From: an uncultured Deinococcales bacterium
GTDB taxonomy: Bacteria > Deinococcota > Deinococci > Deinococcales > JAAFIG01
Length of the DNA stretch: 11,377 nucleotides
Assembly (NCBI GenBank): GCA_964247135.1
Contig: CAXTTL010000157.1
Span: 1-11,377, forward strand
Direction of reading: 5' to 3'
Under the pieces are notes generated by a model. It did no database searches. It had not been told where the DNA came from and saw only the letters and a list, made by a program, of their open reading frames with translations. The number at the start of each line of letters is the position of its first letter. The stretch's first letter is position 1. This document shows positions 2,276-7,149 of this stretch, piece by piece. The position numbers were made by a program, and so were the translations under genes.

Positions 2276-3031
2276 TTAGTCAAGTATTGGGAACTCTAGA
2301 GTAGGGAGTTGTTTTACATTTCGCTTAAGTAGCTCAATAAAACGCTGAGTAACCTCCCAGGCTTGTTTTGCAAATTTATCTTGATGAATACCTAAAATAT
2401 CTTCGTGACCACCATGACGCTGTTCTAGTGCAAGTTCACACATTTCTTTAGTCCAATCCTTAGAGGTGTTCAGCGCCTCATTCATTTTTTCCCAAGATTT
2501 AGGCTTGTCTAAGTTATATTGGTTTTTAAAGTAGTGCCTGATAGCTTCAACTGCTTGAAAAGTAAAGAAAGCTAAATTGTCAGGATATTTTTGTGATAAA
2601 CGCAAACTATCAAGTGCTCGACGCAACTCTGGCGTCTTAAAAGATATTTCAAAAACATCATCAAAAACAAACTTTTTAGTGAATATTTTGAGCTTTTCAT
2701 TTCCCTCAAAAGAAATTTCTTGACTTTGACCATTCCAATGAATTGTTTCAAGCTGAAAATCATAAAATATAGATTCGAGAAAGCACCAAATGTCAAGGAT
2801 TGCACGAATATTATAGCGTGCAAAATTCAAAATTTCGTTTGTTTTTTCAAAATTACCTTCTGCAATTGTAAAAATAACTTTGACATTTTGCCCTGAAAAT
2901 ACTACTTCGACATCACCTGTAAAGCCTATAAATTCTCGAGCCTCATCTCCACATTTTAGTTTTGTGGTCTTGACCAATAAGATTGGTTTGTGATCTGGAT
3001 AGATTCGACCACGTATTTCAAGTTGATTCAT
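2276..3031 (-). CDS. AT-rich hypothetical protein inside the tRNA array; C-terminal helical domain possibly HEPN-like
   Basis: 251-aa ORF with SD AGAGAGG 5 nt upstream of ATG. Much more AT-rich than the flanks. The C-terminus has FFTFQAVEAIRHYF...W...QRHGGH. The family assignment is inference. Confidence 0.8.
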   Translation of the reverse strand: MNQLEIRGRIYPDHKPILLVKTTKLKCGDEAREFIGFTGDVEVVFSGQNVKVIFTIAEGNFEKTNEILNFARYNIRAILDIWCFLESIFYDFQLETIHWNGQSQEISFEGNEKLKIFTKKFVFDDVFEISFKTPELRRALDSLRLSQKYPDNLAFFTFQAVEAIRHYFKNQYNLDKPKSWEKMNEALNTSKDWTKEMCELALEQRHGGHEDILGIHQDKFAKQAWEVTQRFIELLKRNVKQLPTLEFPILD

Positions 3032-3539: not shown

Positions 3540-3614
3540 TGGTGCGGTAGGAGGGACTTGCACCCTCGTTCTCTGCTTGGAAGGCAGGCATCCTGGCTGC
3601 TGAATGACTTCCGC
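3540..3614 (-). tRNA. tRNA-Gly(TCC), non-canonical elbow (A18/G55)
   Basis: GCGGAAG/CTACCGC, CCA; CCTGC-CTTCCAA-GCAGA; T-loop TGCAAGT; D-loop AGCAGCCA lacks GG. Confidence 0.8.
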
Positions 3615-5486: not shown

Positions 5487-5563
5487 TGGGGTCCACCGTC
5501 GGGAATCGCACCCGAGTTTCCAGGGTCACAACCTGGCGTCCTGTCTGTTGGACGACGACGAAC
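5487..5563 (-). tRNA. tRNA-His(GTG), first gene of the array
   Basis: G-1:C73; acceptor TTCGTCG/CGGTGGA (three G:U pairs); CCAGG-TTGTGAC-CCTGG; T-loop TGCGATT; 3' end reads C73-CCCA. Confidence 0.8.
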
Positions 5564-5574
5564 AAAATGAAATG

Positions 5575-5605
5575 AAAAAGGGCTTCTACCGATTCGGTGA
5601 AGCCC
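5575..5605 (-). terminator. Intrinsic terminator/attenuator immediately upstream of the first tRNA
   Basis: Minus strand reads GGGCTTC-ACCG-AAT-CGGT-A-GAAGCCC followed by TTTTTCATTT. Confidence 0.8.
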
Positions 5606-5629
5606 AAAATGCAAAATGGGTACACCAAG

Positions 5630-5800
5630 TTAACTTGTGAAGACCTCGAGACGGAATTCGTTACGACCTTGCCAACTGCGAACGCTTTGATGCTTCGGGC
5701 TACAACGCAATGCACTCCCGCAATAACCCGACAATAGATTCGCGCCGAAATTCGTGGCGGGATTCTCGAGTCTTAAATTTTGGAGTTGCATAAATGTCAT
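5630..5800 (-). CDS. Putative 56-aa leader peptide of the tRNA array
   Basis: MTFMQLQNLRLENPATNFGANLLSGYCGSALRCSPKHQSVRSWQGRNEFRLEVFTS*. SD-like GAAAGGT just upstream of ATG; stop 24 nt before the terminator hairpin; lies downstream of the predicted promoter. Confidence 0.55.
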   Translation of the reverse strand: MTFMQLQNLRLENPATNFGANLLSGYCGSALRCSPKHQSVRSWQGRNEFRLEVFTS

Positions 5801-5848
5801 GGCGACCTTTCAAACCTCGAGTGTCACTCGGGGTCAATCTCGAGGTTG

Positions 5849-5877
5849 AGTGTACGGTGTACGTAAATTTGTGTCAT
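5849..5877 (-). promoter_or_regulatory. sigma70-type promoter for the leader and tRNA array
   Basis: ATGACA (5877-5872) - 17 nt - TACACT (5854-5849) on the minus strand. Confidence 0.6.
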
Positions 5878-5931
5878 TCGTACAATTGCTTAGACGCCAC
5901 TAAGCCATTTGGTCAGAAGTTACGGTTTGAG

Positions 5932-5946: not shown

Positions 5947-7149
5947 ATGAAAACAGATGTGACGCTCGAGGAAGCCATATCAATCTTGGCGGGTATTTTG
6001 CCAGCACCACAACGCGAATCGGTTGGTTTGCTCGAGGGATTGCACCGCGTGCTGGCAGAGGATTTGAAAAGTCTGGTGGATCACCCAAGCGTCGATGACA
6101 GTTCCTTGGACGGTTACGCCGTGCGGCTCGAGGACACCCTTCAAGCCACGCCAGACCTTCCAGTGCGGTTCGAGGTGATGGGCGCGGTTGCGGCAGGCTC
6201 TGTGCCGTTTGTCGGGCGGCTCGAGAAAGATCAGGCGGTCAAGGTTTTTACGGGTGCGCCAGTGCCCGATGGCACAACTGGCATTGTCATGGTCGAAAAC
6301 ACGGTTCGAGACGAGGACAGCGTTTTTGTTTACCAGCCAGCCACGCCCGACGTTCGCAAGCGTGGGCAAGACCTCGAGGTTGGGAAATCGTACCTGCAAA
6401 AAGGTCAGATTTTGCGTGGCTCACAAATTGCACTCGCGGCGGCGATGGGTCACTCGAGTTTACCCGTCCTCAAGGTTCCTCGAATTGCCATTCTCAGCAC
6501 GGGCGATGAGATTCTCGAGCCTGGACAACCCTTACCGCCTGGTGGGGCGTACAACGCCAACAGTTACGGACTGGCGGCAATGCTGCGCGAAATGGGCGCT
6601 GAACCCGTGATTTTGCCTCGAGTCAAAGATGACTTGGATTCGATTCGCCAAAGTTTTGAAGCCGCCAAAGATTGCGATTTGCTCCTCACCATCGGTGGGG
6701 TCAGCATGGGTGAACGCGATTTTGTGCGGATGTTGCTCGAGCGTGAGGCGAATATGCACTACTGGAAAATCAAAGTCAAACCCGGTGGTCCACCCGTCTG
6801 CGCGACTTGGCAAAACCTGCCCGTGTTCGGGCTTCCAGGCAATCCAGTCTCGAGTCTGGTGATTTTCTTGCTGGTGGTGAAGCCTGCACTGTACAAACGT
6901 TACGGCGTCTTCGAGCCAGCGTATGAAACCGTAACTGCTACCGCACTAACGCCGTTTAAAAGCGCAGGCGCGAAAACAGGAATGTGGCGTTGCACCCTCG
7001 AGAAATTTGAGAATGGTTTTGGTGCAAGGGCTTTCGGTAATCAAAGCTCTGGAGTCTTGCGCAGCATGGTGCAAGCCAATGCGCTGGCGGTCGTGCCACC
7101 ACAAACGGAAGTCAAAACAGGCGAGAGGCTCGAGGTGATTCGACTCTAA
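5947..7149 (+). CDS. moeA: Molybdopterin molybdotransferase MoeA (gephyrin-like)
   Basis: Motifs HRVLAEDL, P-x-x-D-x-S-x-LDGYA, VFTGAPVPDG, STGDEI, GGVSMGERD, KPGGP, FGLPGNPVS and QSSG. The true start is probably ATG 5947 (MKTDVTLEEA). Confidence 0.95.
   Translation: MKTDVTLEEAISILAGILPAPQRESVGLLEGLHRVLAEDLKSLVDHPSVDDSSLDGYAVRLEDTLQATPDLPVRFEVMGAVAAGSVPFVGRLEKDQAVKVFTGAPVPDGTTGIVMVENTVRDEDSVFVYQPATPDVRKRGQDLEVGKSYLQKGQILRGSQIALAAAMGHSSLPVLKVPRIAILSTGDEILEPGQPLPPGGAYNANSYGLAAMLREMGAEPVILPRVKDDLDSIRQSFEAAKDCDLLLTIGGVSMGERDFVRMLLEREANMHYWKIKVKPGGPPVCATWQNLPVFGLPGNPVSSLVIFLLVVKPALYKRYGVFEPAYETVTATALTPFKSAGAKTGMWRCTLEKFENGFGARAFGNQSSGVLRSMVQANALAVVPPQTEVKTGERLEVIRL

Follow-up and report, generated by a model that had tools for sequence, protein, structure and literature searches.

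A ribosome-mediated transcription attenuator probably gates a supernumerary array of tRNA genes in an uncultured Deinococcales bacterium, as judged from sequence, conservation and predicted RNA folding. The stretch of DNA analyzed here (the window) is an 11.4-kb contig (C157) of a 5.09-Mb metagenome-assembled genome (MAG) of this bacterium, 84% complete; the array and its leader lie on the reverse strand, and the first array gene, tRNA-His, is preceded by a promoter-like site, a short open reading frame (ORF) and an intrinsic terminator. The elements present in the sequence, how well they are conserved and the two competing folds predicted for the leader lead us to infer the promoter and its start site, translation of the ORF, a kinetic competition between two hairpins and the direction of the response. 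Transcription from the promoter at 5877-5849 would run through a 56-codon leader, and the segment just past its stop codon (5628-5617) would pair with 5606-5594, where the terminator has its 5' arm and the edge of its loop. The 5628-5617 strand is made first, and so this antiterminator would form before the 3' arm of the terminator emerges. A ribosome on pace with the polymerase, standing at or nearing the stop codon, would cover the 5' strand of the antiterminator and the terminator would form, with transcription ending approximately 11 nt short of tRNA-His. Late initiation, slow movement or a stall anywhere in the ORF would let the antiterminator hold and would lead to read-through into the array. 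As the leader contains no run of a single codon, such a sensor would report the general speed of translation and not the supply of one amino acid.

The terminator (5605-5575) consists of the hairpin GGGCUUCACCGAAUCGGUAGAAGCCC (5605-5580) followed by UUUUUC (5579-5574), in which the T-run occupies 5579-5575. Its calculated folding energy is -17.4 kcal/mol (z -4.10), a stability reached by one of 200 dinucleotide shuffles, and approximately 11 nt separate the T-run from the start of tRNA-His (5563). A consensus terminator scan did not list the hairpin at 5605-5580, because that scan takes loops of 3-8 nt without bulges and the stem contains a bulged A. The original prediction, made from the letters of the window alone, had called for an intrinsic terminator between the promoter and the first tRNA and for a 56-codon ORF ending 24 nt before it; both are confirmed, the ORF running from the ATG at 5800 to the TAA at 5632-5630.

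The 5' strand of the antiterminator begins 4 nt past the stop codon and is made up of UUGGUG (5628-5623) and CCCA (5620-5617); its 3' strand, UGGG (5606-5603) and CACCGA (5599-5594), comprises the 5' arm of the terminator and the edge of its loop. In the window the predicted helices join UUGGUG with CACCGA and CCCA with UGGG. Pairing was calculated in the ensemble of the nascent transcript, which was cut at the end of the terminator loop, before the 3' arm emerges, and in which the whole ORF was kept as a competitor. Pairing with 5629-5614 was predicted with a probability of 0.69-0.97 at 10 of the 13 positions of 5606-5594 and of 0.00-0.29 at the other three. The resulting hairpin has an energy of -11.9 kcal/mol (z -2.57), and three of 200 shuffles were as good.

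A different antiterminator had been proposed originally, a strand inside the ORF (AGCCCGAAGCA, 5701-5691) complementary to 5613-5601. The complementarity is present, with a duplex energy of -12.8 kcal/mol, and two of the 161 11-mers of the ORF pair with the same target equally well or better; the homologous segments in four congeners reach just -6.3 to -11.9 kcal/mol. As a structure in the nascent ensemble it attained a probability of 0.003 or less, and this, together with its weakening in the congeners, led us to reject it as the switch. The pairing that the folding model supports is instead that of the post-stop segment 5628-5617 with 5606-5594. The broader logic of the earlier proposal, in which translation leads to termination and a lagging ribosome to read-through, is supported by the anatomy of 15 genomes from five genera, as described below.

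The family to which the window belongs comprises 19 species genomes in five genera (g1, the genus of the window, and g2-g5). The array-type tRNA-His was found in 15 of the 18 other genomes of the family; the rest of the order was sampled through 22 genomes belonging to four further families, none of which has it. When species genomes were searched for exact matches to the core pattern of tRNA-His, 13 records came up, all titled as Deinococcales MAGs; within the family, the array looks vertically inherited. The upstream layout was compared in 15 genomes with an array-type tRNA-His (five from g1, one from g2, two from g3, one from g4 and six from g5). The order of the parts is the same in all of them: promoter-like site, Shine-Dalgarno (SD)-like motif, an ORF starting with ATG, a gap, a GC-rich hairpin with five to seven T residues, a spacer and tRNA-His. 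An intrinsic terminator thus stands between the ORF and the first regulated gene in 15/15. The ORF varies from 47 to 72 codons and the distance from the hairpin end to tRNA-His from 12 to 61 nt (14 genomes; approximately 20 nt by eye in G008). Conservation of the spacing between ORF and terminator, which had been suggested as a check, is borne out: the gap between stop and hairpin measures 21-25 nt in every genome. The terminator stems differ between genera (GGGCTTC/GAAGCCC, TGAGCCTA/TAGGCTCA, GAGCCTC/GAGGCTC, CTTGGGTCTGGC/GCCAGACCCAAG and TCGAGCCTGA/TTCAGGCTCGA), and it is therefore the structure, not the sequence, that is kept.

The alternative pairing recurs along with the terminator. In the nascent transcripts of all 15 genomes the 5' arm of the terminator is predicted to pair with the post-stop segment, with most partner probabilities at 0.8-1.0, and the 5' strand of the antiterminator always starts at +3 to +9, counted from the initial base of the stop. 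Antiterminator hairpins range from -8.8 to -15.5 kcal/mol and terminators from -11.9 to -23 kcal/mol; the fraction of gap shuffles that matched the observed antiterminator energy was 0-0.09. An antiterminator mutually exclusive with the terminator is thus predicted in 15/15, with a specificity that is moderate. One change within the genus of the window is informative: two genomes, G001 and G005, have AU inserted in the gap together with a U-to-A change beside the 5' arm, and the inner helix is thereby lengthened.

When the stop codon occupies the A site, a ribosome protects approximately 12 nt downstream. In every genus a terminating ribosome with a footprint of this size would fit over the antiterminator strand of the outer helix and would leave the terminator free, since the hairpin begins 21-25 nt past the stop. 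The distance from the stop to the end of the terminator, approximately 60 nt, fits a ribosome that closely trails the polymerase. No upstream segment was predicted to sequester the antiterminator strand, and an untranslated leader should therefore read through. In g1 the T-run is 12-18 nt from tRNA-His, which leaves no room for a promoter, yet this gene is 83-99% identical to the array-type copies in 14 other genomes of the family; read-through would therefore be needed for its expression.

Good indirect evidence suggests that the leader ORF (56 codons and a TAA, 5800-5630) is translated: an open frame, fixed start and stop columns, in-frame indels and SD-like motifs. In the window GAAAGG (5811-5806) lies 5 nt ahead of the ATG, g5 and g3 carry GGAGAA or AGGAGA at this position, and a short ATG-initiated ORF preceded by an SD-like motif was found upstream of the tRNA genes in 15/15 genomes. 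The leader frame is free of stops in all 15; when the alternative frames of that span were read, 4 of 70 were. Within g1 the ATG column is constant, the stop column is constant despite an exchange of TAA and TAG, and the two indels (+36 and +3 nt) are both in frame. Variable columns at the three codon positions number 19/23/24 in g1 (56 codons), 13/19/25 in g5 (48) and 14/16/11 in g3 (55), compared to 12/7/28 for a control taken from that alignment, codons 1-50 of moeA, and peptide identity between genera is 24-33%. The leader peptide thus appears to drift almost neutrally while its frame stays open, as would be expected if the act of translation, and not its product, matters. A profile search of 5.8 billion proteins returned 22 relatives of 48-83 amino acids, all of them unnamed or hypothetical proteins and none with a Pfam domain, and the leader peptide itself matched no family in Pfam, NCBIfam or PHROGs.

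No codon run that could serve as regulatory codons was found in the leaders, which use 18-20 distinct amino acids, more than is seen in windows of real proteins, of which a fraction of 0.008-0.33 reached the observed count. We considered a leader selected to contain all amino acids and rejected it: there is no evidence of selection, and 18-20 is about what random codons give (calculated as approximately 18 for 56 codons). A match between the leader and the amino acids served by the array was also considered, as both the leader and the array of the window lack Asp and Ile. This was taken as a coincidence, because the leaders of congeners contain Ile or Asp though their arrays lack those tRNAs.

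A further fold concerns the start codon, the region of which (AUGAC; AUGAACUUU / UAUGAACUUU in g5) is predicted to pair with AAGGUCGU, a segment inside the ORF that is conserved at the nucleotide level. In the window this concerns 5798-5800 with 5666-5662 (probability 0.9), and in six of six g5 genomes the probability was 0.5-1.0; the pairing was not predicted in the other four g1 genomes, in g2 or in g3. Such a pairing could confine initiation to a co-transcriptional interval.

The promoter-like site (5877-5849) was listed by a consensus scan with 9 of 12 matches and is sigma-70-like: ATGACA at -35 (5877-5872), a 17-nt spacer and TACACT at -10 (5854-5849). Across genera CG(A/C)ATGACA, 17-18 nt, TAnnnT and then CTCGAGG align. 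A hairpin with the arms CCTCGAG/CTCGAGG (5845-5815), read from the sequence and its minimum free energy fold, stands at the predicted transcript start; its 5' arm is changed in one congener (L005). Directly upstream of the -35 lies an inverted repeat, GCTTAG-N6-CTAAGC (5905-5888), which could bind a regulator. In the form GGCTTAGT-N5-6-ACTAAGC and variants it is found ahead of the promoter across genera (variants are kept in g1, g3 and g5), and it occurs once in the 5.09-Mb genome, in which the leader is likewise unique. The original prediction had described the switch as independent of any repressor, which may not hold, given a conserved, genome-unique inverted repeat that adjoins the -35.

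The precedent for such control is the array of Anabaena sp. PCC 7120, for which the available text of PMC10272220 describes a ribbon-helix-helix repressor, TrcR, acting on 9-nt direct repeats that stand in tandem across the -10 and start site. With up to two mismatches allowed, 5840-5910 contained no match to the repeat patterns published for TrcR. Matches elsewhere in the window were close to chance, one pattern giving two against 2.08 expected and a second five against 1.89, a count reached by 7 of 200 shuffles; none of these was at the promoter.

Between tRNA-His and tRNA-Tyr lies a conserved 19-nt element, TTGACAACTCGAGTGCCAA (5448-5430), which is unique in the genome. TTGACAAC is present in 14/14 genomes checked and the full TTGACAACTCGARTGCCAA in 13 of them, G006 diverging after TTGACAACT. 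In the window the element scores as promoter-like in the consensus scan (TTGACA-16-AAAAAT); no conserved -10 could be read by eye after the TTGACA in g2, g3 and g5. A hairpin picked up by the scan directly ahead of tRNA-Tyr (5418-5393) has a stem that varies on both sides among congeners (GGTTCAAG/CTTGAACC, CGTTTTG/CAAAACG, ATTCTGG/CCAGAAT), and a hairpin of variable sequence follows the 19-nt element in every genus.

The tRNA-His gene of the window (5564-5487, anticodon GUG) was called by ARAGORN and by Rfam (45.6 bits), and G-1 (5564), C73 and CCA are all encoded, the gene proper starting at 5563. In three congeners (loci L004, L005 and L006 of G001, G002 and G005) the array tRNA-His carries an insertion of 47-100 nt in the T-arm region, flanked by repeated GCGAT; these copies may represent either a gene with an intervening sequence or a dead gene.

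Several observations weigh against attenuation as proposed here. In 14 of the 15 genomes the terminator is more stable than the antiterminator, and the switch must therefore be kinetic. To refold from the antiterminator into the terminator, the transcripts of the 15 genomes would have to cross an estimated barrier of 7.3-12.8 kcal/mol, which would be high enough to trap the antiterminator kinetically for as long as transcription takes. Energies are related in a similar way in the trp leader, in which the 2:3 pairing is much weaker than 3:4. The specificity of the pairing is moderate. In 5.0% of the 303 terminator-like hairpins of the genome, the upstream 27-nt segment equals that of the leader in the strength and extent of its pairing with the 5' arm, and in one genome alone the antiterminator pairing would be weak evidence. 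When gaps and arms were swapped between genera, the cognate mean was -12.2 kcal/mol (n=15) and the non-cognate mean -7.6 kcal/mol (n=158); the cognate gap was the best for four of five arms and the cognate arm the best for three of five gaps, and 9.5% of the 158 non-cognate pairs attained the cognate mean. The arms of g3, g4 and g5 share GAGCCU and so are not independent of each other. In a MAFFT alignment of 14 sequences the helix registers differ between genera, and within genera the antiterminator region is 88-94% identical, neither of which allows covariation to be counted column by column. If the 5448-5430 element is a promoter, only tRNA-His depends on the attenuator, and the inserted tRNA-His copies in three of the five g1 genomes were not called by ARAGORN. 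Finally, none of the sequencing runs on record as RNA contained the stretch.

We consider it unlikely that the ORF simply encodes a small protein and that the terminator belongs to this gene, the tRNA genes being reached by leaky read-through or served by another promoter, such as the TTGACA element after tRNA-His, and the pairing being incidental. Gene callers do list the ORF as a hypothetical protein, and the 22 database relatives, the persistence of a few peptide motifs (HSDL, WQGR), the 5.0% of hairpins with comparable upstream pairing and the TTGACA-16-AAAAAT site of the window count in favor of this reading. However, its peptide shows no third-position bias and is just 24-33% identical between genera, and the distance from stop to hairpin is fixed at 21-25 nt although the adjacent spacers vary. 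In addition, the pairing recurs in 15/15 genomes with differing sequences, and tRNA-His would be left without a promoter of its own, with no -10 conserved after the TTGACA in g2, g3 and g5.

It is also rather improbable that the main switch is a regulator acting at the inverted repeat and promoter, as TrcR does in Anabaena, with the terminator merely a fixed damper or insulator. The conservation of the repeat beside the -35, its uniqueness in the genome and the promoter-bound repressor of the Anabaena array (as given in the available text of PMC10272220) all speak for this explanation, whereas the published TrcR-type repeats are missing from 5840-5910 even at two mismatches, and a fixed damper leaves the ORF, the fixed spacing from stop to hairpin and the alternative hairpin unexplained. 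A promoter-bound regulator and an attenuator could coexist. Two mutually exclusive hairpins are predicted, and the same pair might in principle be set by a tRNA, a small molecule or a protein acting on an untranslated leader; the nucleotide-level conservation of some ORF segments, such as TTGGCAAGGTCGTA in g1 and g5, and the predicted pairing of that segment with the start-codon region in g5 and in the window are in line with an RNA switch of this kind. We regard it as very unlikely, since no T-box, other known leader or riboswitch family was matched at E values of up to 10, the frame is open in 15/15 genomes with in-frame indels and SD-like motifs, and the antiterminator strand lies at a fixed short distance from a stop codon.

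Compared to known systems, the leader has the structural features of leader-peptide attenuators as far as these can be read from the DNA, with the exception of regulatory codons and a 1:2 pairing. In common with the attenuators of amino-acid operons (trpL, hisL, leuL, thrL and pheL), it has a short leader ORF, a terminator ahead of the first gene under control and a predicted antiterminator built on the 5' arm of that terminator, and a ribosome at the stop codon would favor termination. It differs from them in having no run of cognate codons, in using 18-20 amino acids, in its length (47-72 codons, as opposed to 14-30) and in that the regulated genes are tRNAs; unlike the trp-type leader, it has no predicted 1:2 anti-antiterminator, and without translation it should read through and not terminate. 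The closest systems in logic are the antibiotic-responsive leader-ORF attenuators known from Term-seq and earlier work, such as B. subtilis bmrB-bmrCD, vmlR, Listeria lmo0919 and ermK. In these, impaired ribosomes on the leader ORF shift the choice between terminator and antiterminator to read-through, and the genes controlled are resistance genes, often by way of drug-specific arrest peptides. What they share with the present case is the proposed sensing of translation trouble, not of one amino acid; here, in contrast, the peptide has hardly been conserved, and what would be controlled is a tRNA array. T-box riboswitches also have a terminator/antiterminator leader tied to tRNA biology, whereas no covariance-model match (E up to 10), specifier or bulged antiterminator was found here, and an ORF is present. 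At gathering scores Rfam returned tRNA alone, and at E values of up to 10 tRNA and three weak, unrelated matches.

The array itself comprises 22 tRNA genes by ARAGORN (5563 to 1827). A 23rd gene, tRNA-Gly(UCC) at 3543-3614 on the same strand, was detected by Rfam (47.7 bits), and ARAGORN lists it only when its threshold is relaxed; beyond tRNA-His, the 21 further ARAGORN genes and this one occupy 5386-1827. The array ends at a terminator, CCGCCACGAGGCGG followed by eight T residues (1735-1714), which was found by the terminator scan and in the sequence. Of the 66 tRNA genes in the genome 44 lie outside the array, and 17 of the 22 array anticodons listed by ARAGORN, including that of tRNA-His, have a second, dispersed copy. 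The array is for this reason a supernumerary one, of the kind described as long arrays (L-arrays) in the available text of PMC8421152: it contains the approximately 20 or more tandem, non-periodic tRNA genes by which these are recognized there, in excess over a dispersed housekeeping set, as counted in a MAG that is 84% complete. Horizontal transfer, as suggested by a patchy occurrence, is a further trait of L-arrays in that text. The arrays of relatives have 15-29 genes in the 9 of 12 where the parse traversed the array; in the other three (G003, G009 and G007) it gave just 3-4 genes. Gene order is kept across genera (His Tyr Asn Asp Arg Arg Arg Pro Ala Val Ile Met Phe Gln Glu Lys ...), and genes for Asp and Ile are absent from the arrays of G000, G001 and G005, the readable arrays of g1.

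According to the available text of PMC8421152, the trn L-array of Anabaena sp. PCC 7120 stays silent until antibiotics that target the ribosome induce it. It is the closest known system in output, induction when translation is impaired being what we propose here, and it resembles the present array in being long, non-periodic and supernumerary. It differs in that the TrcR repeat patterns are absent from the Deinococcales promoter and in that the host here is not a cyanobacterium; Deinococcus-Thermus is placed, in the same available text, among the phyla with mostly stand-alone tRNA genes. The words terminator, attenuat- and leader are absent from the main text of PMC8421152, and none of the papers listed by our literature searches described an attenuator of the leader-peptide kind for tRNA genes or arrays. 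The regulation of individual bacterial tRNA genes is poorly known, and in the available text on long arrays that of Anabaena is the one studied, with its promoter-bound repressor.

More tentatively, though as a credible extension of the attenuator proposal, the family may keep approximately 20 reserve tRNAs behind a coupling sensor that measures solely whether the first ribosome reaches the leader stop before the polymerase finishes the terminator. A general slowdown of translation, by antibiotics, starvation, cold or tRNA damage, would then switch on the reserve, convergently with the repressor-controlled array of cyanobacteria. If this holds, a second, self-contained mechanism without a protein sensor serves the same need as the Anabaena repressor, and ribosome-mediated attenuation extends from amino-acid and resistance genes to the parts of the translation machinery itself. 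The design is simple, with the antiterminator strand directly behind the stop codon, and its predictions are clear and can be tested with short reporters.

The other genes of the window are an amidohydrolase gene, a divergent moeA and a bacterial alpha-2-macroglobulin gene. The conserved start of moeA is the ATG at 5947 and not that at 5794, as indicated by the alignment and by a Pfam match that begins at residue 57. Within the array, a 251-amino-acid ORF (2276-3031, reverse strand) lies in an island of 33% GC with one CTCGAG site; it had no match in Pfam, NCBIfam or PHROGs, and the island looks like recently inserted foreign DNA. A phage origin was rejected, as megablast of the window against a phage collection gave no match. 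A short GC hairpin element (GGGCGAGGC..GCC.CGCCCC), possibly a small mobile repeat, occurs at differing places, at approximately 1360-1400 in L003 and in the spacer before tRNA-His in G017.

The sequence CTCGAG is present in 89 copies in the window, compared to 2.7 expected. In the whole genome (G000) it is the commonest hexamer, with 33,925 copies in 5.09 Mb or approximately one per 150 bp, spread alike over coding regions, spacers and tRNA genes, and GGATCC (seven copies) and GCGATCGC (two copies) are almost missing. A cyanobacterial origin was rejected, the genome having no Photo_RC match and just two GCGATCGC sites. CTCGAG looks like a hyper-abundant palindrome comparable to the cyanobacterial HIP1.

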